Shown here piece by piece: positions 1-20,594 of a stretch of 32,447 bases of DNA. How positions within the stretch are numbered: the stretch's first letter is position 1; every line of letters begins with the position of its first letter. The notes under the pieces are model-generated. The model was not told the origin of the DNA and ran no database searches. It was given only the letters and a program-made list of their open reading frames with translations. The position numbers and the translations under genes were made by a program. Source of the stretch: a virus (lineage: Duplodnaviria; Heunggongvirae; Uroviricota; Caudoviricetes); the IMG/VR virus record IMGVR_UViG_2585427783_000005; one strand, written 5' to 3'.

Positions 1-452
1 AACACCAGCAAACAGATAAAAAAGGGCCAGCCAATTGGCCAGCCCTTCTTAACAGGATGTCGCTTAAGCGAAATCTTAGTTAAGACGCTCCCAATAAAAC
101 CACATAAAAAACATATAATTATAATAAAAACAATTAGTTAATTTAATTTTTAATGCAGTGAATTGCAATATTCTGCAACCTCCGCCGCCACTTTGCCGCC
201 ACTTAAAGCTTTATACCACACAGACTTTAGTATACCCGAGTGAAACGCTAACACATGAGGTAGTTGGAAAATTTCCGTATATGTTGTAATATTGATACGC
301 ATTATATGATTTTTACCTGATATAATGTAATTATTAGCTTCAAAATTATTTTTGCACGAATCAGGTATTACCAAGTAGTTGTCAGTTTTTAAAAACCCAA
401 CATCCTAAAATTAGCATTGTTTTTTAACCACAAAACATCCACGGAGAAGAAC

Positions 453-1262
453 GTGTCAAAAAAGGATACAATCCAGATTATCGATATCAGGATGCAGAGA
501 CCAATCATAGCAAGAATAGAAGAAGAAAATTTAAATTTGACATTGCAAATGTCAGATAAAGCCACATTATCTGGTGCGACAGTTAGTTTTTTCACCCCAA
601 ATAACGTTTCTATATTCTTATCCTCAGCAAAAAAAGAGCTCTCAAAATCCAATTCTATATATAAAAGTCTTTTTGGAAAAATACACAAAACCAAACATAA
701 AAACTTTAAAATTTCCGACAAAGCCCTGCCGAGACTCTATAATTACTTTGAATCAATTCAGACGGCCATTATTTCTATGTATACTGCAATTGAGTCTTTT
801 GCAAATATATGCATACCACATGATTATGTTTATGAAAAAAACAATGCCAAGGGAATCAAAGAATCCTATAGCAAAGAGCTAATTGAGCGATATATACCAA
901 CAAGTGAAAAAATAGATAAAATCCTACCGTCTATTTTAAATTGTGATTCACCTAAAGGTTCAAAACTATGGCAAGATTTTAAAAGCCTTGAGTCACTTAG
1001 AAATGACATAATTCACCCCAAGACAACAAAGAAAAACACAGAAACAAAAGAAGACTCATCTTTTTTATGCATTTTACTATCAGATGACTTTATAAAAAAA
1101 GTTTCCTGTGGATTTGATTTGGTATCTTATTTTTGCAAACAAGACACTACTCATAGTCTTTTCCCAATGGGTTTCGGTGAAATTGAACTTAAACCTGTCC
1201 CAATTAAAGCCGGTGACTTTGAAAAAGTTGATGATCATGATGAAATAGAATTACCATCATAA
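453..1262 (+). CDS. AT-rich hypothetical protein with Rx4H (HEPN-like) motif; possible Abi-type cargo gene
   Basis: Long ORF (track 417..1262, TTG at 417); GTG at 453 has GGAG 9 nt upstream. Lys/Asn-rich, much lower GC than the prophage backbone. Motif LESLRNDIIHP. Start codon uncertain (ATG 492 also possible). Confidence 0.5.
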   Translation: MSKKDTIQIIDIRMQRPIIARIEEENLNLTLQMSDKATLSGATVSFFTPNNVSIFLSSAKKELSKSNSIYKSLFGKIHKTKHKNFKISDKALPRLYNYFESIQTAIISMYTAIESFANICIPHDYVYEKNNAKGIKESYSKELIERYIPTSEKIDKILPSILNCDSPKGSKLWQDFKSLESLRNDIIHPKTTKKNTETKEDSSFLCILLSDDFIKKVSCGFDLVSYFCKQDTTHSLFPMGFGEIELKPVPIKAGDFEKVDDHDEIELPS

Positions 1263-1310
1263 CAAAAAAACACAAACCATAAAGACGGCCATAGGTGGTC
1301 TTTATGGTTT
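1262..1310 (-). terminator. Rho-independent terminator downstream of int (13-bp perfect stem, T-run on minus strand)
   Basis: AAACCATAAAGAC (1274-1286) pairs with GTCTTTATGGTTT (1298-1310); on the minus strand the hairpin is followed by GTGTTTTTTTGT (complement of 1262-1273). Confidence 0.6.
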
Positions 1311-1378
1311 ACAATAGACGCAGCCGTTATTAAATTTAAATCCAACAGCGTTAAAATAAACTAACAATATACGCATAA

Positions 1379-2419
1379 TTAATCTTTCCATTTAAAACCA
1401 TTACATAATGTTAAAGGATTAAATGTTACAGCCTCCTCAAGATGATCCGGGGAGAAATGTGCATACTTCATAGTTTCACGAATATTCGCATGACCGAGTA
1501 TACGTTGCAGCACAAGAATATTCCCGCCATTCATCATAAAATGAGCGCCGAAGGTATGACGCAGAACGTGTGTCTTTTGCCCTTCCGTCAGTTCGATATC
1601 CGTTAGTTTGAGCATCTTTTTAAACTCCTGATAGCAAGGCTTAAACATCTTTCCCTGCCTTTCAGATAATTCGTCATACAACCATTTTGGGATCGGAACG
1701 GTTCGATTCTTTTTCCCTTTCGTTTTGGTGAAGGTCAGTTTATGTGGCGAGAGCTGGGGACGTGTCAACCTCTCAGCCTCACCCCATCTAGCACCTGTTG
1801 CAAGACAAATCTTAACAATCATGGTGAGGTCTTCTTTTCCGTATTGCTCGCATGCCTGAAACAATTTCGGAATTTGAGACAAAGTGAGCCAAGACATTTC
1901 TTTCTCGGCTTCCTTGAAAACACGGACTCCATCAAGTGGATTTGGTAAGCTCCACTCCCCTAGCCTTTTGAGCTCATTAAATACAGCCTCAAGATATTGT
2001 TGCTCACGATTGACAGTTATCGGTTTAGCAATCCATTTTGCCGGGTCTTTATGATAGCCATTATCTATCTCCCCCCGAAGTCGGCGGTCACGGTAATGAG
2101 CCCAATCTTTAGCAGTAAGGCGGGATGCAATAGGGTCACCAAGTCCATTACACACGATTTGAAGTTTAGCTAACCGCGACTTACTGGCGACCAGTGCCTG
2201 TCCGTGTAAATTATGCCAAAGCTGGATAATCTCACTTAAGCGTCGGCGGTCTTCTTTCTTGCCGAGCCACGGCTTATCCTCACTCTCACTTTTCGTAAAT
2301 GCTTCGAATGCCTCGGCCTCACCTTTGGTATTGAATTGCCGACGTATACGCCGCCCTTCTCGACCATTTGGATAGAGCTCGCATAACCATTTGCCATTTT
2401 TTTGCTTACTTACAGTCAT
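1379..2419 (-). CDS. int: Tyrosine integrase, P2/186 type
   Basis: 346 aa; C-terminal catalytic region VLRHTFGAHFMMNGGNILVLQRILGHANIRETMKYAH (R...HxxR...Y); lies beside the repressor gene as in P2/186 prophages. Confidence 0.9.
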   Translation of the reverse strand: MTVSKQKNGKWLCELYPNGREGRRIRRQFNTKGEAEAFEAFTKSESEDKPWLGKKEDRRRLSEIIQLWHNLHGQALVASKSRLAKLQIVCNGLGDPIASRLTAKDWAHYRDRRLRGEIDNGYHKDPAKWIAKPITVNREQQYLEAVFNELKRLGEWSLPNPLDGVRVFKEAEKEMSWLTLSQIPKLFQACEQYGKEDLTMIVKICLATGARWGEAERLTRPQLSPHKLTFTKTKGKKNRTVPIPKWLYDELSERQGKMFKPCYQEFKKMLKLTDIELTEGQKTHVLRHTFGAHFMMNGGNILVLQRILGHANIRETMKYAHFSPDHLEEAVTFNPLTLCNGFKWKD

Positions 2420-2441
2420 AATGTCACCGAGGCAACTCTAA

Positions 2442-2780
2442 TTATTCCCAAAGTGCTGTTGCAGCATCCATTACAGGATCCAAAGGAATTTTTACGCCTG
2501 CATACTCCGGGCTATCTTTCCAAACAGTATCAATATTGCTCCCCTCAAGCTTTCCAGACTTTACTCCATCAATCGCAAAACCATTTAATGGGTATCGGTC
2601 ATCTGTTGCTTTGTCGTACACAAAGGCATATTTACCGTTGACACAAGACACCGTAGCTTTTTCAAAAGTTAACGGCCAATCCTCACCAAACTTAGCGCCA
2701 TCTAAATCCTGTGTTTTTTCAGCGGCTGAGGCTCCAAAAGAAAGGGTAAGAAGCAGAGCTAAAAAGAGTTTACATTTCAT
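2442..2780 (-). CDS. Small secreted/periplasmic protein of unknown function, inserted between cI and int
   Basis: ATG at 2778-2780 (revcomp) with AAGGGA RBS; N-terminus MKCKLFLALLLTLSFGASAAEKT is a typical Sec signal peptide; mature part ~90 aa. Track ORF 2442..2852 has a longer, unlikely N-terminus. Confidence 0.7.
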   Translation of the reverse strand: MKCKLFLALLLTLSFGASAAEKTQDLDGAKFGEDWPLTFEKATVSCVNGKYAFVYDKATDDRYPLNGFAIDGVKSGKLEGSNIDTVWKDSPEYAGVKIPLDPVMDAATALWE

Positions 2781-2788
2781 AATGTCCC

Positions 2789-3649
2789 TTACACGTGTTT
2801 TTCCAATGTGAAAACTACAGCCCCGGCAGGAGTAATGTCTGTAATGTTGCATTCAAACTCAGCAGACTTATTTGACAACCTGACTTTTCCACCGGGCAAG
2901 CGAATTACATCAAAAACATCAAGAGCGCCGTCGATATCAATTAACCAGCGACCATTACTTATATTCGAAGCAGAACAGTCGACAAGCCAAGAGGCAGCTA
3001 CACCGTCAACAAAAATCAATTCCCCTGAGTTAGAAGGAATCATTGAGGGGTCAGGATGCCACGTTCCTGCATCCTTAAGCTCACCAGATTCAAGACGAGA
3101 TTTTTTAATAGAAAAACCAGATGTGACATCTTCCCTGTTAGCTCGCATTTGCCCCTTGCCTGTTGCTAACCATTCCAGTGACGTATCGGTATCAAGAGCG
3201 CATGTAACAACAACATCACCAGGGAAAAAATCTCGCCTTACCCATGTGCTAATTGTGCCAGAGGAAATGCCGAGCAAATCACCGAGCTCCTTTTGCATGG
3301 TAAAGCCATACGCATCAAGAATCCTACGCAAAACGGTTTTACCACCATTCGTCATAATCTCGTCATAAAGCTCTTTGCCTTTTAACTTGCAACTGGCTCG
3401 CTCGTGATTTGCATTTGCAAGTTCTCCATTTACAAGCCAATTGATATCAGCTCCCGTGTCAAGACAACACCTAACTATGACATTGCCAGGTATTGCATCA
3501 CGCTGAACCCAGCCGCTAACGCTGTGTTTAGCGATACCTAGCAGGTCAGCCAAATCCTTTTGCATCTTGACCCCATAGGCTGACATTAAGCGTTCCAATA
3601 CGCCGTTCGTTGCACTAACACGCCACTGAACATCAAGCTCAGAACTCAT
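2789..3649 (-). CDS. cI: CI-type immunity repressor (186-like) with tandemly duplicated N-terminal HTH domain
   Basis: 286 aa. Two homologous modules (VLERLMSAYGVKMQKDLADLLGIAKHSVSGWVQRDAIPGNVIVRCCLDTGADINWLVNGE / VLRRILDAYGFTMQKELGDLLGISSGTISTWVRRDFFPGDVVVTCALDTDTSLEWLATGK), then a C-terminal domain resembling the 186 CI oligomerisation domain. Divergent from the early operon. Confidence 0.85.
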   Translation of the reverse strand: MSSELDVQWRVSATNGVLERLMSAYGVKMQKDLADLLGIAKHSVSGWVQRDAIPGNVIVRCCLDTGADINWLVNGELANANHERASCKLKGKELYDEIMTNGGKTVLRRILDAYGFTMQKELGDLLGISSGTISTWVRRDFFPGDVVVTCALDTDTSLEWLATGKGQMRANREDVTSGFSIKKSRLESGELKDAGTWHPDPSMIPSNSGELIFVDGVAASWLVDCSASNISNGRWLIDIDGALDVFDVIRLPGGKVRLSNKSAEFECNITDITPAGAVVFTLEKHV

Positions 3650-3678
3650 AAAAACCCCTACAGATAATTTTATGGGTG

Positions 3679-3707
3679 TTTACAGAAAACTTTTTACGAT
3701 CTATAGT
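3679..3707 (+). promoter_or_regulatory. Candidate sigma70 early (lytic, pR-like) promoter in the cI/apl switch region
   Basis: TTTACA (3679-3684), 17-nt spacer, TATAGT (3702-3707); ~60 nt upstream of the AGGAG RBS and ATG at 3771. Confidence 0.5.
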
Positions 3708-3770
3708 GGCATTCATCGACCAAGATGCACACCACTGCACTACATTTCAAACAACAGGAGATAATGCGAT

Positions 3771-4142
3771 ATGTCAGATGCAAAATCAATCTCGACGCAC
3801 GACTCGCAAAACTCACAAAATCAAACTGTGCTGCTAGATCCAACACAGTTTGATGCCATCGTTACCGCCATGCTGCCAGCTCTACAGACAATGATTCGCT
3901 CCGCTATGTCAGACACGATGACTGTGAAAGACTTCGCCGCTACTCGCGGTGTTAGCGAGCGTCTGGTCTGGCAATGGCTCGATGAGGGAGTCCTTCTCAA
4001 AGCTCCGACCAAAGACTTTTCCAACAAAGAAGAAGCTGCTAAACGAAGCCGAACCCTCGTAAACGTAAAAGCATGGCGCGATAAGCTGACTCAACAAGCG
4101 ATTGATTGTCGCTACATCGACCAGCGCACCGCTCTTAACTGA
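3771..4142 (+). CDS. Putative Cox/Apl-like DNA-binding regulator/excisionase (first gene of early operon)
   Basis: ATG at 3771 with AGGAG RBS; HTH-like segment MTVKDFAATRGVSERLVWQWLDEGVL; position equivalent to 186 apl / P2 cox. Longer than Apl/Cox (123 aa), so the call is positional. Confidence 0.45.
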   Translation: MSDAKSISTHDSQNSQNQTVLLDPTQFDAIVTAMLPALQTMIRSAMSDTMTVKDFAATRGVSERLVWQWLDEGVLLKAPTKDFSNKEEAAKRSRTLVNVKAWRDKLTQQAIDCRYIDQRTALN

Positions 4143-4174
4143 ATTTGATTATGCAAGTTAGAGGGAATTTAACC

Positions 4175-4684
4175 ATGTTTGATTTTCAGGTTTCCAAACA
4201 TCCCCACTATGACGAAGCATGCCGCATTTTCGCACAGCGTCACAATATGGCGAAGCTGGCCGAGCGTGCAGGTATGAACGTTCAAACGTTACGTAACAAG
4301 CTCAACCCGGAACAGCCTCACCAGTTCACGCCGTCTGAATTGTGGCTGCTGACTGACCTGACCGAAGACTCAACCCTCATTGATGGTTTTTTAGCGCAGA
4401 TTCACTGCCTACCATGCGTGCCGGTTAATGAGTTGGCTAAAGACAAATTGCAGTCTTATGTCATGCGCGCAATGCGTGAACTCGGCGAACTGGCGAGCGG
4501 CGCGGTATCTGATGAACGTCTGACCATTGCCCGTAAGCACAACATGATTGAAAGCGTTAACTCCGGCATTCGCATGTTGTCATTGTCGGCTCTGGCTCTG
4601 CATGCACGTCTGCAGACTAATCCAGCTATGTCGAGCGTGGTCGATACCATGAGCGGTATTGGCGCATCGTTTGGTCTGATTTGA
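4175..4684 (+). CDS. cII: CII-like lysogeny-establishment regulator (phage 186 CII family)
   Basis: 169 aa starting MFDFQVSKHPHYDEACRIF, ATG at 4175 with GAGGG RBS; matches my recollection of 186 CII in size and position after apl. Track ORF starts at upstream TTG 4145. Confidence 0.8.
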   Translation: MFDFQVSKHPHYDEACRIFAQRHNMAKLAERAGMNVQTLRNKLNPEQPHQFTPSELWLLTDLTEDSTLIDGFLAQIHCLPCVPVNELAKDKLQSYVMRAMRELGELASGAVSDERLTIARKHNMIESVNSGIRMLSLSALALHARLQTNPAMSSVVDTMSGIGASFGLI

Positions 4685-4691
4685 GGTGCGT

Positions 4692-4892
4692 ATGCTGAAA
4701 AGTGAACCGTCATTCGCATCTCTGCTCGTTAAGCAAAGCCCCGGCATGCACTACGGCCACGGCTGGATCGCAGGTAAGGACGGCAAGCGCTGGCCCCCGA
4801 GCCACTCGCAGGCTGATTTACTGGCTGGCCTCTCTACTCAAAAGCGGGGGGGCTCATGGCTATCGAAGCTGTTTCCGCGACTGTTCCGCTAA
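4692..4892 (+). CDS. Hypothetical early protein (position of 186 fil/dhr region)
   Basis: ATG 4692 preceded by GAGG; 66 aa; overlaps next ORF in another frame. Confidence 0.4.
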   Translation: MLKSEPSFASLLVKQSPGMHYGHGWIAGKDGKRWPPSHSQADLLAGLSTQKRGGSWLSKLFPRLFR

Positions 4893-5194
4893 AAGCGGGT
4901 GAACGTCTGGCCGGTCTCAATCATGTTGCCGAATTGCGCGCGAGATATTGGGGCGATAGCTGGAAAGAGGTTGAACGTTTTGTCGATGATATGCGCGATA
5001 AACGTGACCCACAATTTGAAGAAAATAATCGGGCGCTGGCCGCTATTTTCTTTCTGGCAAAAATACCGGCGGCTCGTCATGAACTCGAATTAAGTGAGCT
5101 GACTACTGACGAGAAAAAGGCGCTTATTACAGCGATGAATCATTTTCGTGCAGTAGTGAGCTTATTTCCCAAACGGCTAACCATGCCGAATTAA
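4856..5194 (+). CDS. Hypothetical early protein
   Basis: 112 aa ORF with balanced composition; G-rich RBS region immediately upstream. Confidence 0.45.
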   Translation: MAIEAVSATVPLKAGERLAGLNHVAELRARYWGDSWKEVERFVDDMRDKRDPQFEENNRALAAIFFLAKIPAARHELELSELTTDEKKALITAMNHFRAVVSLFPKRLTMPN

Positions 5195-5261
5195 TCCAAA
5201 CAGAAATTTAATGGCGTAAACCCGCCGGGCATCTTATTGCCCGAAATCAGGAGAGTTAATT

Positions 5262-5489
5262 ATGCGTAATACCGAAATCCGTAGTTTTAACACTGATAGC
5301 GATGCGCTGGCCGTATTGCTGACCGATGCAAAAAAAGAAGAGCGTAAAGACCGCGCGCTCGCTGTTTCCATCCGCCTTGAGGCGCTGGCTATCCATATTA
5401 CCAGAGAGGGAATGAGCGGCACCGAAGCTGCCGAACTGCTGCGCCGTGAAGCAACCCGCTTTGAGAATGAATCACAGGAGCTGCACTAA
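5262..5489 (+). CDS. Hypothetical small early protein
   Basis: ATG 5262 with AGGAGAG RBS; 75 aa; stop overlaps next start (TAATG). Confidence 0.55.
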   Translation: MRNTEIRSFNTDSDALAVLLTDAKKEERKDRALAVSIRLEALAIHITREGMSGTEAAELLRREATRFENESQELH

Positions 5490-5710
5490 TGGCCGACGCA
5501 ATGGATTTAGCACAACTGCGCGAGCAGGAAGACCGCGAACGCCACATCAGCAACGCACGCACCCGTATCGCTGCACCTTCCCGTTTTCTTTGCGAGGAAT
5601 GTGACGCACCAATCCCGGAAGCTCGCCGCATTGCGATTCCTGGCGTGGCTTTTTGCGTAACCTGCCAGCAAATCGCAGAGCTAAAAAACAAACACTATCG
5701 GGGGGTATAA
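5489..5710 (+). CDS. TraR/DksA-family C4 zinc-finger protein
   Basis: 73 aa with CEEC-x17-CVTC (Cys4) motif; common just upstream of gene A in P2-like phages. Confidence 0.75.
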   Translation: MADAMDLAQLREQEDRERHISNARTRIAAPSRFLCEECDAPIPEARRIAIPGVAFCVTCQQIAELKNKHYRGV

Positions 5711-5711
5711 A

Positions 5712-7934
5712 TTGGCTGTTCAATTCGCTTATCCGTGGAACGTCCCACGGTCGGCAATCTCCAGCCCATACCTTACTTATGAGCAACAGCATCGCCGCGA
5801 CCGTATGTTCGCGGCTTTGCTGCATGCAAAAAAGGTGCTTTCTCTCCAGCCCGACTGCGTGCGGTTAGATGTTTATCGCACTGCTGCGGTGCTGGAACAA
5901 AATCAGGGTAGTCAACGAGCCAATGCATTTTTAATCAGCTTCTGCAAAAAGGCATTGCCGCGTCTTGAACTGGTCGCAAAAAAATACGAATGCGCTGGTA
6001 TCAACAGCAAGGTATCAACCGCTGTTTTTGGAAGTCATTTTGATACTCAGCAAATGCAATATCTGTCGTCACGCATGGTTAATATGGTCGCCCGATATAA
6101 CCGTCTCCCGGACATGTCGCGCGCTGATGTTGACCTGTTGGCCGCTGATATTGCTAATTTCATTCGTGGTGAACTTGCCAACATTAATGACCACGGATTC
6201 AGCGAGCTTAAAACGCTGTACACCTGGTATATTCGTGCTGGCTTTATTTCCCTCCAATTCAACGTTATCCCACCACATTGGGAGCGGGTTGAAAAAAAAT
6301 ATGTCGGTGCGGATGAAATCGCACCGGCTATCGCCAAAATGTTTAACGATGGGTGGTGGCGCGGTCGTTTGCGCCGTGTAGCAGCTACGTGGCGCGAACA
6401 CCTGCAAATTGCAGTCGGCAACGTCAGTAAGAAAAAAAACACTTACGCGAGTAAAAACTGCGTGACTGACTGGCGTGAACAAAAGCGCCGCACTCGTGAA
6501 TTTCTCAAAGGTCTGGATCTCGAAGACGAAGACGGCAACCGTATCAGCCTAATTGAAAAATATGATGGCTCAGTTGCTAACCCTGCGATTCGCCGCTGTG
6601 AGCTCATGACCCGCATTCGTGGGTTTGAAAACATCTGTAATGAGCTCGGTTATGTCGGTGAGTTTTACACTCTAACCGCGCCGTCAAAATATCACGCCAC
6701 GACTAAAGCCGGTTACCGTAACAGCAAATGGAGCGGTGCCAGCCCGGCTGACACGCAAAACTATCTAACCGGTATCTGGGCGCGTATCCGTGCCAAACTA
6801 CATCGGGAAGATGTCCGTATTTTCGGTATTCGTGTCGCCGAGCCCCATCACGACGGCACTCCACACTGGCACATGCTGATGTTCATGCTGCCGGAAGATG
6901 TTGAATATGTTCGCTCCATCGTCCGTAAATACGCATGGAAAGAAGACCGCCACGAACTGAAAAGCGATAAATCCCAAAAAGCACGTTTCCACGCGGAGTC
7001 CATTGACCCGGAGAAAGGCAGCGCAACCGGCTATGTTGCTAAATACATTTCAAAAAATATCGACGGTTATGCTCTCGATGGTGAAACCGATGATGAAAGC
7101 GGTGAGCTGCTGAAAGAGACAGCCCCCGCCGTTTCAGCATGGGCTGCGCGCTGGCACATCCGTCAGTTTCAGTTTATTGGTGGTGCGCCGGTGACGGTTT
7201 ACCGTGAGTTGCGTCGCCTCGCTGATACCGAAACCGCGCACGGTCTGAGCGTTGAGTTTGCCGCCGTCCATGATGCCGCCGACGCTGGTGACTGGGCTGG
7301 TTATGTTAATGCTCAGGGTGGGCCGTTTGTCCGTCGCGATGATTTACAGGTGCGCACACTGTATGAACCGCGTACCGAGCTTAATCAGTACGGTGAGGAA
7401 ACGGTATGTATTAAGGGGGTCTACGATTCCTCCATAGGTGCAGGAAGCCCGATTTTAACCCGGCTCACTCAGTGGAAGATTGTTCCGAAGCGTGCTGTTG
7501 ATTTGGCCGTTGACCTTCAGGACGGCAAAGCCGTCCCTCGGAGTTCTGTCAATAACTGTACGGGAAGCGAAAGCGATCCACCGATACTGGATTTAACAAA
7601 ACCACTGAGTCGGCGTGAAAGACGAGAATTGACCAACCGACTCAGGAAGCAAAAGCCAGCAGCACGGCGAAAATTCATCCACGGAACGGATGAGCAAAAC
7701 GCAGCTATAGCTAAAACTATCGATGAGATACATCTGACAACCGGCATTAATATCAGCCGGGGCGAAGCCCTGCACCTGATGGCCGGTGGTAAAAGTTGTT
7801 TTGATGGTAAATGGCTACGCGGAACGGCCAAAGGAGAAATATTTTCCGCAGCACCATCGCATGAGGCTAAAGCTCGGAAAATCCTTAATCGTGTTGCGGC
7901 GATGGCTGAAGCATCAAAACCAATACATGAGTAA
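5712..7934 (+). CDS. A: Rolling-circle replication initiator (P2 gpA family)
   Basis: 740 aa; HHDGTPHWHML and GYVAKYISKNIDGYALDG motifs; apparent TTG start at 5712 after a GGGGG RBS giving MAVQFAYPWNVPR, which resembles the P2 A N-terminus. Confidence 0.9.
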   Translation: MAVQFAYPWNVPRSAISSPYLTYEQQHRRDRMFAALLHAKKVLSLQPDCVRLDVYRTAAVLEQNQGSQRANAFLISFCKKALPRLELVAKKYECAGINSKVSTAVFGSHFDTQQMQYLSSRMVNMVARYNRLPDMSRADVDLLAADIANFIRGELANINDHGFSELKTLYTWYIRAGFISLQFNVIPPHWERVEKKYVGADEIAPAIAKMFNDGWWRGRLRRVAATWREHLQIAVGNVSKKKNTYASKNCVTDWREQKRRTREFLKGLDLEDEDGNRISLIEKYDGSVANPAIRRCELMTRIRGFENICNELGYVGEFYTLTAPSKYHATTKAGYRNSKWSGASPADTQNYLTGIWARIRAKLHREDVRIFGIRVAEPHHDGTPHWHMLMFMLPEDVEYVRSIVRKYAWKEDRHELKSDKSQKARFHAESIDPEKGSATGYVAKYISKNIDGYALDGETDDESGELLKETAPAVSAWAARWHIRQFQFIGGAPVTVYRELRRLADTETAHGLSVEFAAVHDAADAGDWAGYVNAQGGPFVRRDDLQVRTLYEPRTELNQYGEETVCIKGVYDSSIGAGSPILTRLTQWKIVPKRAVDLAVDLQDGKAVPRSSVNNCTGSESDPPILDLTKPLSRRERRELTNRLRKQKPAARRKFIHGTDEQNAAIAKTIDEIHLTTGINISRGEALHLMAGGKSCFDGKWLRGTAKGEIFSAAPSHEAKARKILNRVAAMAEASKPIHE

Positions 7935-8233: not shown

Positions 8234-8467
8234 ATGAGAATCAATATCACGTTGGATAAAGAGCAAAAAATTAGTCAGGCAACATTGGATGCACTTGAGG
8301 CTGAACTGTACCGCAATCTTCAACCTATTTACCCAAAGACTGCTATCCGAATTCGCAAGGGCTCCGCTAATGGCGTTGAACTAAGCGGTTTGAAACTGGA
8401 CGAAGATAAAAAACGAGTAATGGAAATCATGCAGCAGGTATGGGAGGACGATAGCTGGCTGCATTAA
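8234..8467 (+). CDS. DinI/Tum-family protein (candidate SOS-induced antirepressor or RecA modulator)
   Basis: 77 aa; MRINITLDKEQKISQATLDALEAELYRNLQPIYP ... EIMQQVWEDDSWLH resembles DinI in length and conserved N- and C-terminal segments; downstream of the LexA box. Confidence 0.75.
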   Translation: MRINITLDKEQKISQATLDALEAELYRNLQPIYPKTAIRIRKGSANGVELSGLKLDEDKKRVMEIMQQVWEDDSWLH

Positions 8468-9367: not shown

Positions 9368-9526
9368 TGCCATTTTTCCGCGAATTTCCCGTTTTTTAGT
9401 CGTGCATGCATCAGGTGCATGGTTTTGCATGCGTCAGTCTTGCCCGTTCTGTCCGTGCGCCGCCAGAGCTAGCGCGGATCCAGAGTTGTCATGCAACTGC
9501 ATTAAAACCGCCCCATAAAGCGGGCA

Positions 9527-9545
9527 GGCGTGGCGGGGAAAGCAT
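9527..9545. other. cos site (cohesive-end sequence, P2/186 type)
   Basis: GGCGTGGCGGGGAAAGCAT in a ~400-bp GC-rich non-coding interval between the early/accessory region and portal gene Q, where cos lies in P2-family prophages; resembles the P2 19-nt cohesive end as I recall it. Confidence 0.65.
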
Positions 9546-9764
9546 TGCGCGCCAGCAGTGATGCGTAATAATAAAAATTATCCTCTGAGCGCGTCGTGAT
9601 GGCGCTGTCGTGGTCGCTGCTGGTTCGTTGGTGGTCGAGTGTGTTCGTGCGCGTGAGACGCATCTGATGCGTGATGGTGGTGTGCATGGAAAAGCCACCA
9701 GGAGCAGCGGCTTTACAGGAGTGGCAGGATTCAAACTGCTAATTATGTTTCTACTATGATTAAA

Positions 9765-10769
9765 CTAATTTACATGTATGTAGAGTTCACCGTCGCCAGA
9801 CCAATCGGGACACTCTAAAACAAGCCCAAACTGCTTGAATATTTCATCAATGATTATTGTTATCTCCCGAAAATCACCAAAACCTGTAATGTGCTGGTCA
9901 TTAAACTTCCCATAAAGATTCTGAAAAGCAATGCCTAATTCTGATAATTGATATCTTATCTTTGAGTTGGATAGTGTAAGGGATAGCTTTGGATCGTATT
10001 CTTTAATATTGATGTTTAGAGAATGGACATAACCCATCGCATAAGCATAAGAGTTGATGATTAGCCTGATACGTTTTTTTACTTCAAGATACATGTCATT
10101 CAGAGAAATATTACCGTACTTATAACCCCAGATGAGTTTTTCAATCTCGTCAGATACTTCATTTACAACAGTGTCAAGATTCTCTAAAAATAAATCGACA
10201 GTTTCTTGAGGGGCAGACCCCGAAGACATGTAATTAGCGAGATATTCAGACCATGCACGCGTGGCTGAGATAAGAAGCGCGCTACCATACTCGTTGACTG
10301 TAAAGTTTTGGGCTAAGCATGTTAGTAAGTTTTTTTCATGTACGTGCACTAATTCATGGTGAATGCGATGGATGACTGCGAGGTATCCTTCTTCTTTCAG
10401 TTTTAAGAAGCTACCATCATTGAAAAGCTCAACAAAAAAATCAATCGATAGCACAAGGGTATATTCTTCATATAGCCCATCATTGCCAATTTTTGTTACT
10501 AACTGCCCGACGGCTGCGCCCTGTTTGCTATTGGTAAATGAACTAGGGGATTTGTGTTGGTAAGAGGATGTTACCTTTTGAAGAGCTTCACTGAAGTTAT
10601 AGGAAACAATCACGCATTTTAATTTGGAGATATCAAGATTGAGATTCTTTGTTAAAGCTCGGATAGCTTCTAGTGTGAAATTACCGATATTATTTGCTTC
10701 TTGCTCAGTAGCGAAACCTTCGAGGGTTATTTTAAAATCAGTTTCCAAAATATTAATCTCCGCGCCCAT
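9765..10769 (-). CDS. AT-rich hypothetical protein with HExxH motif (possible metal-dependent hydrolase); accessory gene between cos and Q
   Basis: 334 aa ORF, ATG at 10767-10769 (revcomp); IHRIHHELVHVHE motif; strongly AT-rich relative to flanking phage genes; no recognisable P2 homolog. Confidence 0.6.
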   Translation of the reverse strand: MGAEINILETDFKITLEGFATEQEANNIGNFTLEAIRALTKNLNLDISKLKCVIVSYNFSEALQKVTSSYQHKSPSSFTNSKQGAAVGQLVTKIGNDGLYEEYTLVLSIDFFVELFNDGSFLKLKEEGYLAVIHRIHHELVHVHEKNLLTCLAQNFTVNEYGSALLISATRAWSEYLANYMSSGSAPQETVDLFLENLDTVVNEVSDEIEKLIWGYKYGNISLNDMYLEVKKRIRLIINSYAYAMGYVHSLNINIKEYDPKLSLTLSNSKIRYQLSELGIAFQNLYGKFNDQHITGFGDFREITIIIDEIFKQFGLVLECPDWSGDGELYIHVN

Positions 10770-10846: not shown

Positions 10847-11893
10847 TTATTCTGGGTTGTCGAGGGTGTACTCTTTGAATCTGATGACCTCCATGCCGAG
10901 CCAGTCATTTACCTCCCTGAACCTGTCCTGTAGCGGCGACAGCTCGTTGCGCACAAATACCTTTGCCACCTTCTCAACATCACCGAGTGAACCGATATTC
11001 TCGGGCTTGCCGCCCATGAGCTGGAACGGTACGCGGTGCGCGTCCATCAGATCGGCGGCACTGGCCTTCTTGATGTTGAAAAAGTCATCCTTTGTGGCGA
11101 CCTCGCTCAGTGGCACGATTTTGATGCCGTCCGGTTTTCCGCCGGGAGCGTAGAAAAACAGGTTCTTAAAGTTGCCGAGCCCTTTTGAGTTGCGCATCGC
11201 CTCGCGCAGCGATTCGACGTCGGTCGCGCTCTGCGCCGGGTCAGTCACATACATGATGTAGCCTGCGTGCGCGCCGTTCTGATAATACTTGCGGCGGAAC
11301 AGCGTCGCGGATTCATTCAGCCAAGCGGAATTAAGCGCGCTGAGATATTCCGGCAGACCGTAAATCTCCTGATTAATGTCGGGCTCCAGCAGGTGAAACA
11401 CGGTATCAGGCGCGAACTCGTGCGGCTGGGTGAAGTTTTCCACAAACCAGAAAATCGAATCGTCGACTCCGCGTCGGGTGTATTTGGCTGGCGAGGCCAG
11501 CAGTTTGATTAACTGGCCGGTGACGCTGTGGCGCTGCTCAAGAAAGGCGTTACCGAACACCAGATAATCGAGCGCAAAGCGGCTGAAATCCTGACGGGAT
11601 AACAACGGGTGCGGAATGTAGGTGCTCGCGAGCACGTTACGCTTAACATAAATTGGCGAGCTGTGATGCACGGCAGAGCGCAGGCTCTTTGCCAGCCCTG
11701 AGAAGCTGACCGGCGGCTCGTACCATTTGCCGTTACTGATGCACTCGACGTAATCCAGAATGTCGCGCTTATCGAGTACCGGCACCGGCTCGCCGAAGGT
11801 GAACGCTGTCGTTTTTGGCGGTGCGCTGGCGGTCAGTTGTTGTGGTTTGCTGGCCTTTTGTGCGTTGGCTTTACGGGATTTTTGTTTACCCAT
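10847..11893 (-). CDS. Q: Portal protein
   Basis: 348 aa; size, position and orientation (adjacent to and downstream of terminase P) match P2 gpQ. Confidence 0.9.
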   Translation of the reverse strand: MGKQKSRKANAQKASKPQQLTASAPPKTTAFTFGEPVPVLDKRDILDYVECISNGKWYEPPVSFSGLAKSLRSAVHHSSPIYVKRNVLASTYIPHPLLSRQDFSRFALDYLVFGNAFLEQRHSVTGQLIKLLASPAKYTRRGVDDSIFWFVENFTQPHEFAPDTVFHLLEPDINQEIYGLPEYLSALNSAWLNESATLFRRKYYQNGAHAGYIMYVTDPAQSATDVESLREAMRNSKGLGNFKNLFFYAPGGKPDGIKIVPLSEVATKDDFFNIKKASAADLMDAHRVPFQLMGGKPENIGSLGDVEKVAKVFVRNELSPLQDRFREVNDWLGMEVIRFKEYTLDNPE

Positions 11894-19718: not shown

Positions 19719-20594
19719 CTAGCCTCGTAAATATCGTTTAGTAAATTTCGTGTTTGGTCTGGATGATAGGATTTGTCTTTCTATTTCACTATCACAGTCT
19801 ATATAGTCTAGTGTATTAGCTTCTATAAGTTTGTTCACGTCAATATTTTTTGCATCGATTATGTTGGCATTTCTAAGGTTTGCATTGGTGTATTCCACTT
19901 TATCCAAATCACACTCTCTGAGTACGCAACTTTTCATTTCCGCATTGGAAAAATCCCCACCATATAAATAGCAGCCTTCAAAAATAACACCGTTTAACTT
20001 TGAATCCTGAGCTTTAATATTTTTTATTTTACACTTTATAAATTTTACGTTTTTCATTTTGCTCTTGCTAATATTTAATGCCTGGATTGTACATCCAGTG
20101 AAAGAACAGTCTCTTATGTTAGATTTTTCCATATTTAACCCAGATAGTTCTGAGGTTTTAAAGTGTAAGTATTTAATGGTAAAAAGGTCACCCAACTCCA
20201 TTCTGGGTATGTCTATATTGAAGACACCTTTATTGTTGAGCTGTCTTATTATTTTTATTTTTTGTATTTTCAAATCAACATTAACGTGCTTAGCTAAGTT
20301 TCCCAAATCCTCAAGAAGTTCATTAATCGTTTCTTTGTTTTGTCTTCTGTATTCAAAGTAATAAAGGATGACACCTAATACAAAAAAATCCAAAATGGAT
20401 GAATTTGCATTTATTAGGAACCCAGACAGGAATGAATCATTGTAATTACCATAGTGTATAGAGGCAAGTGTTACGCCAAATGCATATAAAATAAAAATAA
20501 TAAACACGTGCTTCATTTTGCATAAGGATTGTATTATTGGTTTTATGGCATCAATTTTGTTCATTGCTGCAGCAGCGAAAGATTTAAAAGTCAT
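19719..20594 (-). CDS. Membrane-anchored pentapeptide-repeat protein (moron between S and V, antisense to late genes)
   Basis: 291 aa; two N-terminal hydrophobic helices (VFIIFILYAFGVTLASI, ILDFFVLGVILYYF); C-terminal five-residue periodicity (SNIRD CSFTG CTIQA LNISK ... ANLRN ANIID); strongly AT-rich. Start codon uncertain (no clear RBS). Confidence 0.7.
   Translation of the reverse strand: MTFKSFAAAAMNKIDAIKPIIQSLCKMKHVFIIFILYAFGVTLASIHYGNYNDSFLSGFLINANSSILDFFVLGVILYYFEYRRQNKETINELLEDLGNLAKHVNVDLKIQKIKIIRQLNNKGVFNIDIPRMELGDLFTIKYLHFKTSELSGLNMEKSNIRDCSFTGCTIQALNISKSKMKNVKFIKCKIKNIKAQDSKLNGVIFEGCYLYGGDFSNAEMKSCVLRECDLDKVEYTNANLRNANIIDAKNIDVNKLIEANTLDYIDCDSEIERQILSSRPNTKFTKRYLRG

Follow-up and report, generated by a model that had tools for sequence, protein, structure and literature searches.

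What an AT-rich gene beside the integrase gene (int) of a prophage does, whether it belongs to that prophage or to an island next to it, and whether its product can be counted among the HEPN ribonucleases are the questions raised by one end of a 32,447-nt stretch of Caudoviricetes DNA (IMG/VR record IMGVR_UViG_2585427783_000005; the whole stretch is referred to below as the window). The gene, here called the HEPN gene, occupies positions 453..1262 on the + strand. It lies inside a P2/186-like Escherichia coli prophage integrated at the 3' end of rplS, and its product is probably a solo HEPN ribonuclease encoded by a one-gene accessory cassette (moron) of this prophage, which would serve as abortive-infection cargo activated by infection.

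Attention was drawn to the gene by an initial annotation, made from the letters and open reading frames (ORFs) alone, which singled out the sequence LRNDIIH (R-x4-H) as an HEPN-like signature. The motif is encoded at 996-1016, with R183 at 999-1001 and H188 at 1014-1016, and is the sole Rx4-6H in the protein. In shuffles of the same protein an Rx4H arises by chance at a rate of 13% and an Rx4-6H at 33%, so that the motif alone is not beyond chance; it becomes meaningful because it is conserved across the family and is placed at a defining structural position. Relatives were collected by a word-indexed search, which returned 33, and by a profile search of 1.84 billion cluster representatives, which returned 1,093 at E <= 1e-3, of which 677 reached E <= 1e-10. 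Conservation was read from an alignment of 151 sequences, that is, the HEPN-gene protein and 150 representatives of at least 230 amino acids (aa). The arginine is present in 151/151 and the histidine in 149/151, and residue 184 is N, D or H in 150/151 (N 79%, D 13%, H 7%). The other conserved positions include E114 (99%), N118 (100%), K153 (99%) and K190 (96%), together with the N-terminal residues D11, R13, P17, P49 and N50 (86-97%). The stretch from R183 to H188 (R-N-D-I-I-H, 999..1016, + strand) is therefore the predicted catalytic Rx4H motif.

The structural position of the motif was examined in an AlphaFold2 monomer model built from 31 sequences (mean predicted local distance difference test score, pLDDT, 80.6; predicted template modeling score, pTM, 0.77). 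The model shows a four-stranded beta module (aa 14-47) followed by helices at 51-74, 89-120, 171-187 and 213-230, the last preceded by a loop, and an insert at 121-170 between the second and third helices that consists of a beta hairpin and two short helices. A predicted HEPN domain can thus be delimited at aa 51-230 (603..1142, + strand; H1 51-74, H2 89-120 with E114 and N118, insert 121-170, H3 171-187, H4 213-230). It is preceded by a small N-terminal beta-sheet module (aa 11-50; 483..602, + strand), which by model and conservation carries the motifs D11-x-R13, P17 and P49-N50 and which is, as a speculation, a candidate regulatory or sensor element. The superfamily is defined by an Rx4-6H that ends helix 3, the residue after R being usually N, D or H, and by a further acidic residue, conserved within helix 2 and typically in the form E-x3-[KR]; inserts between H2 and H3 are frequent (PMC3710099). 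In the HEPN-gene protein R183-N184-x3-H188 forms the C-terminal end of the predicted helix 171-187, matching this definition, and E114 falls within the predicted helix 89-120, where the motif reads E-x3-N (N118) and not E-x3-K/R. All four superfamily features described in that work are present, and the predicted fold and motif placement would be those of a catalytically competent HEPN domain. Structure prediction had been proposed as a check on the HEPN-like character of the protein, and the helix layout of the model agrees with it.

Profile comparisons point in the same direction, and the weak matches obtained go exclusively to HEPN models. The PADLOC model RTasHEPN matches the HEPN-gene protein at E 1.2e-4 and 22 of 31 family members; CARF_HEPN gives weak matches in 11/31, and Csx1 and Cas13a in a few. 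Over the motif region the Pfam models HEPN_RiboL-PSP and HEPN_Cthe2314 each match 10/31 members (best E 2e-4 and 3.8e-3, respectively), and HEPN_Apea is found in 3/31 (best E 6.9e-4), all of them below threshold. The two families suggested at first fared worse: Abi_2 has no match at E <= 1 in the protein or the 31 members, and HEPN_Swt1 reaches only 2/31 members at E 0.12. Since these families are unmatched, the proteins are best regarded as a separate HEPN family. At the family level the HEPN-gene protein was matched by nothing in local Pfam, NCBIfam or full-length PADLOC, and no CARF or other nucleotide-sensor domain was detected in it. In structure comparison the closest matches are the HEPN toxins of toxin-antitoxin (TA) pairs (5yep_B, 7ae2_A, 8xdj_A), at 2-9% sequence identity. 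By sequence the protein matches PHROG 17113 ('unknown function') at E 3.1e-180 over profile positions 1-256 of 256. The Pfam label PF27216 (YopA_C) is precomputed on the 99%-identical homologue P0001 and on 11 others (flagged 'weak' in one context listing), and rests on this homologue annotation, the model being absent from the Pfam copy searched. The name YopA_C suggests a domain that stands at the C terminus of larger YopA-type proteins. Relatives of greater length (375-487 aa), with an N-terminal extension, do occur, the two named ones being from Bacteroidota; Pfam scans of the extensions of ten long-form relatives revealed no domains. From alignment and model together it is concluded that the protein represents a divergent HEPN family with a predicted intact catalytic signature.

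The limits of the gene and its composition were established as follows. The longest ORF at the locus extends from a TTG at 417 to 1262 on the + strand, whereas the true start is almost certainly the GTG at 453, judging from sequence features, which gives a coding sequence of 810 bp including the stop and a predicted stand-alone HEPN-fold protein of 269 aa (YopA_C / PHROG 17113 family). This start is preferred because a Shine-Dalgarno GGAG (443-446) stands 6 nt upstream of the GTG (453-455; whole element 443..455, + strand), because both are conserved in the copy of Klebsiella variicola, in which the 23-nt block ACGGAGAAGAACGTGTCAAAAAA is identical and the surrounding DNA only 76% identical, and because the conserved D11 and R13 are encoded upstream of the next candidate, ATG 492. 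The latter, at which the PHROG model begins, was ruled out as a start by these conserved upstream residues and by the Shine-Dalgarno/GTG arrangement. RefSeq annotates the same 810-bp coding sequence as WP_001394629.1, 'hypothetical protein'. The gene has a GC content of 31.9%, compared with 52.2% for window 1412-32447, which bears out the early description of a gene of about 810 bp and very low GC just outside the 3' end of int. The accompanying description of a Lys/Asn-rich protein holds for lysine (11.9%) and fails for asparagine (4.8%), isoleucine and serine (11.2% each) being the other abundant residues.

The HEPN gene and int converge, their stop codons being 116 bp apart, and in this interval a hairpin with a 13-bp perfect stem (1274..1310) is a probable bidirectional terminator. 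A two-hexamer promoter scan found no convincing + strand promoter upstream of the gene and did not report the candidate extended -10 element TGATATAAT (318..326, + strand), which was recognized by reading the sequence only and whose counterpart in Klebsiella is TGATAAGAT. The ratio of non-synonymous to synonymous substitution rates (dN/dS) is 0.04-0.08 among four orthologues (E. coli, Klebsiella, Morganella and Serratia), and the gene therefore encodes a functional protein under strong purifying selection.

Whether the gene lies in the prophage or in an adjacent island had been left undecided, and this point is now settled by the attachment sites. A 13-bp attL core, AGTTAAGACGCTC, is located at 78..90, where the host match ends; in an uninterrupted site it overlaps the final codons of the host's rplS. 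In prophage-free E. coli, among the matches listed for the 5,407 genomes without the full region, similarity to the window stops at 90, between yfiB and rplS. E. coli ECE313 has the identical 13-mer at attR, beside rplS, and the core is conserved in Klebsiella as well. The order of genes in the lysogen ECE313 is yfiB, HEPN gene, int, CI, CII, Fil, and onward to tape measure, D, an ogr-like regulator and rplS. An island adjoining the prophage was ruled out as the location of the gene by the attL and attR cores and by comparison with a sister prophage. Nor is the gene conserved host core sequence in prophage-free relatives: it is carried by 19 of 5,426 complete E. coli genomes, always as a single chromosomal copy at least 99.8% identical.

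How the gene came to this place is best seen in the sister prophage of E. coli Res13-Sevr-PER07-33, which occupies the same site and is without exactly window 202-1411. Window 1-201 and 1412-4000 are colinear with 3001-3203 and 3215-5783 of the sister locus (L010), and there only 11 bp stand between the two segments. The missing DNA defines a low-GC (31.6%) insertion cassette of 1,210 bp (202..1411) that comprises the gene, its upstream region and the terminator, and the comparison indicates that this cassette entered the last codons at the 3' end of int. In the sister prophage Int ends with ...LYVGDNVAAEVA (...VGDNVAAEVA). In the window the homologous DNA encoding KVAAEVA is cut off from int and orphaned beside attL, as a remnant of the ancestral int 3' end (...KVAAEVA..., about 170-201, within 150..204, - strand, delimited by comparison with the sister Int) that overlaps the attP arm. 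The resident integrase (1379..2419, - strand; 346 aa; Pfam Int_N and Phage_integrase) takes its last ~8-11 codons (1379-1411) from the cassette and now ends ...LCNGFKWKD*, while its catalytic region, including ...MKYAHF..., is intact. A tandem 11-mer, GCCGCCACTTT, is located at 184-204 in two copies in E. coli and three in Klebsiella, and a similar pair, TGCCGCCAATTTGCCGCCACC, lies near attR; repeat sites are also found at about 2880-2905 of locus L002 and 7735-7770 of L003. The tandem GCCGCCACTTT repeats are probably the arm-type sites of Int, kept just outside the insertion.

The K. variicola prophage is organized likewise, its DNA being 76% identical over window 14-2995, which means that the phage lineage has diverged substantially while carrying the cassette. 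A further 49 E. coli genomes match window 1-201 at only 80-90% identity; in 6/6 of those among the matches listed the match runs straight into the integrase gene, and one was confirmed to be without the cassette. The gene is thus present in some and absent from others of otherwise colinear elements, as hotspot cargo is. According to a 2026 survey, the integrase-att interval of P2-like prophages is a minor defence hotspot, accounting for 3% of P2 systems (PMC13586616).

Homologues of the gene occupy a variety of other slots. In the Morganella and Serratia copies DNA homology extends only over the ORF (from 430 and 443, respectively, to 1262), and the ORF alone is therefore the unit that moves. 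The K. variicola homologue occupies the P2-like att-int slot as in E. coli. That of Serratia marcescens belongs to a P4-like satellite with alpha primase, Ash and AlpA genes, in which it is flanked by Psu-like and Delta genes together with P4-cos-like sequence and, at its opposite end, by a P4-type integrase. The psu-int locus of P4 is a defence hotspot (PMC9122126), and the slot of the Serratia homologue is the one described in that work. The 'putative HEPN' tested there (Rousset 2022; pFR103, E. coli S88) is an unrelated longer protein, and WP_001394629 is absent from the supplement. In Providencia the homologue lies between the antiterminator Q and holin genes of a lambdoid prophage; in Pseudomonas tremae it shares an island with genes for SIR2_2 and MvaT; and in Simplicispira it adjoins an integrase, an HNH gene and IS110. 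On a metagenomic contig (L013) it belongs to a long same-strand array of small ORFs with VapBC and an integron-like appearance, on a 45.7-kb viral contig it stands between an RVT_1 gene and umuC, and another homologue is directly upstream of a PLD-family gene and near an MmeI-like restriction-modification gene. The Acinetobacter homologue is on the 8-kb mobilizable plasmid pA2584 with a YafO TA gene nearby. In Morganella the gene resides in an island, adjoining icd in locus L006, that also contains an integrase fragment and a gene of RelA/SpoT-like (toxSAS) type. At 9468-10605 of the Morganella loci L005/L006 a 118-aa gene and then a 259-aa RelA/SpoT-like gene adjoin the homologue; these two are possibly a toxSAS toxin-antitoxin or defence pair. 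The suggestion that the gene resembles defence cargo at an integration hotspot is thus upheld as far as location goes, by the att-int hotspot and by homologues in cargo slots, and its functional part is what we infer.

A partner gene was sought in these contexts and around the cassette. In an all-against-all comparison of neighboring ORFs within 3 kb, over 17 contexts, no common family emerged except integrases, and on the + strand of the cassette no ORF of at least 40 aa stands beside the gene. The only repeats reported by Tandem Repeats Finder were the arm 11-mers and, within the coding sequence, a short A-rich run; none was of antitoxin type, and an Rfam scan gave no family at E <= 0.4. The gene is regarded as a solo module because there is no conserved neighbor, adjacent small ORF, tandem-repeat RNA or Rfam element. 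The same observations bear on the idea that the product is the toxin of an addiction or stabilization module that penalizes loss of the prophage or island and is neutralized by an unrecognized small protein or RNA antitoxin or by autoregulation. Its closest structural matches are indeed toxins of TA pairs, some homologues lie near TA genes (VapBC on L013, YafO on pA2584), and a location by int and att would suit a stabilizing role. Against this, neither MNT nor any other conserved neighbor appears in the 17 contexts, the cassette has no small ORF or recognizable RNA antitoxin to offer, the ORF moves between hosts alone, and at 269 aa, with an extra N-terminal module, the protein is twice the size of a HepT-type toxin, all of which makes an addiction toxin unlikely.

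The probable alternative, an infection-activated solo HEPN ribonuclease, would work as follows. The lysogen would produce the protein in an inactive state, as a dimer or a larger oligomer. In HEPN enzymes, which are metal-independent ribonucleases, two Rx4-6H motifs jointly form a composite active site (PMC3710099); oligomerization would accordingly bring two Rx4H motifs together in one site. A cue from infection by another phage would activate the protein, possibly via the N-terminal beta module or the H2-H3 insert, whereupon RNA would be cleaved without metal ions, leaving 2',3'-cyclic phosphate ends. The most likely target would be tRNA anticodon loops, by analogy with HepS, ApeA and DARNA. 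Translation would then halt and the infection abort, so that the lysogenic population, and hence the prophage, would be protected.

A nuclease carried by a prophage could also work for the phage, in counter-defence or otherwise, for example by degrading host immune signaling nucleotides or specific host RNAs to the benefit of the prophage or a satellite during induction. Some HEPN domains deplete cyclic oligoadenylate signals (DARNA preprint), 11/31 members of the family weakly match CARF_HEPN, Csx1 or Cas13 models, and accessory slots of phages hold anti-defence genes too. This explanation is highly improbable and the least probable of those considered: the protein has no detectable CARF or other nucleotide-sensor domain, the gene also occurs outside phages (integron-like array, plasmid, chromosomal islands), and it is read toward int from an upstream region of its own, as are morons expressed in lysogens. 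A tblastn search of 50,697 sequenced phage records, moreover, did not find the gene in any of them.

Several points weigh against a defensive HEPN ribonuclease. All Pfam HEPN matches score about 15-20 bits, below the curated cut-offs of 27-28; Foldseek against PDB and BFVD returned nothing at E <= 1e-3; and a profile search of PDB sequences returned two spurious matches only (E 0.18 and 0.93). No full-length match was obtained to any system of PADLOC 2.0.0, a 2023 release whose coverage excludes newer systems. Every source labels the family 'hypothetical protein', a defence role being what we infer from the evidence above, and no paper was found that mentions WP_001394629, PF27216 or YopA together with HEPN. 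Around the Duganella homologue, and around that of Psychrobacter (between mnmA and mnmG), nothing is recognizably mobile or defensive. The proposed RNA target and trigger draw purely on analogy, and a solo ribonuclease would need some means of being kept harmless.

The first of these points, the sub-threshold profile matches and the empty Foldseek result, would also suit an inactive or non-nuclease HEPN-like helical protein, such as a binding adaptor or regulator, whose effect on fitness is unrelated to defence or does not go beyond hitch-hiking. Some HEPN domains are indeed non-catalytic; those typically lose the Rx4-6H (PMC3710099). In the present family, which has ~1,100 cluster representatives, the arginine, the histidine, the polar residue after R and the helix-2 glutamate are 99-100% conserved, and together with the dN/dS of 0.04-0.08 this makes an inactive protein very unlikely. 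The HEPN gene is therefore put forward as a previously uncharacterized solo-HEPN cargo gene and a plausible abortive-infection determinant. A bolder proposal, which is offered tentatively and may well prove wrong, is that it is the founding member of a new solo-HEPN immunity family (~1,100 clusters at 50% identity) that moves as a bare one-gene cassette among P2-like, P4-like, lambdoid, integron-like and plasmid slots, and in which the N-terminal module (D-x-R...P, P-N-N) would sense a cue other than that of HepS, ApeA or DARNA.

Further genes were noticed elsewhere in the prophage. A second low-GC island (~30-39% GC) in the late/tail region encodes, at 19719-20594 on the - strand, a 291-aa pentapeptide-repeat protein (PF13599, E 3.9e-19; PF00805) that has no PADLOC match and whose position corresponds to the classical P2 tail-region accessory (Z/fun) hotspot. 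A third low-GC patch (~37%), at 9765-10769 on the - strand between the replication gene gpA (5712-7934) and portal/Q (10847-11893), encodes a protein of 334 aa that is matched by neither Pfam nor PADLOC; its position corresponds to the main P2 old/tin defence hotspot. In the K. variicola sister prophage the same gpA-Q hotspot holds a different HEPN gene (PF18735, HEPN_RiboL-PSP; L004 16354-16810), so that two unrelated HEPN cargo genes can be present in a single prophage. A gene of the DUF2511/YebY family (PF10709, PHROG 2950; 2442-2852, - strand) separates int from the CI repressor gene; it is frameshifted according to annotation in ECE313 and intact in the window and in Klebsiella. Downstream of gpA a DinI-like protein (PF06183, E 7e-24) is encoded at 8234-8467 on the + strand.

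If the proposed function is true, the immune repertoire of prophages and satellites would include another compact, single-gene HEPN abortive-infection family, of 810 bp and free of any partner. The locus itself is a clean natural example of the minor att-int hotspot, in which the extreme 3' terminus of int served as the entry point of the cargo, part of the former int terminus stayed behind as a remnant and the arm repeats were kept. The presence of the same ORF, alone, in P2-like, P4-like and lambdoid slots illustrates how defence genes are exchanged as modules between a lineage of helper phages and its satellites, and as regards annotation there is now a rationale for giving PHROG 17113 / PF27216, a 'hypothetical protein' family, the label of predicted HEPN ribonuclease.

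Compared with known systems, the HEPN-gene protein belongs by sequence to PF27216 (YopA_C) / PHROG 17113, entries that carry no function in the sources used, and to none of the known solo-HEPN systems (ApeA, DARNA/PD-T7-3, PD-T4-2 and HepS) by sequence or architecture, with neither a full-length match to a PADLOC 2.0.0 (2023) model nor a PDB sequence match. From the lactococcal Abi proteins with HEPN domains (AbiD/AbiF, which are Abi_2, AbiJ, AbiV and the HEPN domain of AbiA) it is set apart by the missing Abi_2 match; it has no fused reverse transcriptase, and no AbiF-type RNA antitoxin repeats were found. The HepT/HEPN toxins (5yep, 7ae2, 8xdj) are proteins of ~130-140 aa always paired with the gene of an AMPylating MNT antitoxin, a neighbor that is lacking here. 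DARNA (PD-T7-3) is a dodecamer switched on by single-stranded DNA that the phage single-stranded DNA-binding protein presents, and ApeA is activated by deoxydinucleotides (bioRxiv 10.64898/2026.01.26.701840, 10.64898/2026.02.22.705581). DARNA (456 aa) has its HEPN domain at the N terminus and a Pds5-like sensor of single-stranded DNA at the C terminus, whereas the 269 aa of the HEPN-gene protein are laid out differently; ApeA forms doughnut-shaped oligomers with a ligand pocket, and its similarity to the present family is limited to the 3/31 members with sub-threshold HEPN_Apea matches. The closest parallel is HepS of the Gifsy-1 prophage of Salmonella Typhimurium, which is made constitutively as an auto-inhibited tetramer, is opened by a protein of the infecting phage, the tail-tip protein J, and cuts the anticodon loops of tRNA (PMC13043305). 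Both are prophage-encoded single genes in an accessory slot of a temperate phage, with one HEPN domain, a canonical Rx4H and no partner, and they differ in the position of the motif and in protein size; by analogy, HepS would be the best functional model for the HEPN-gene protein.

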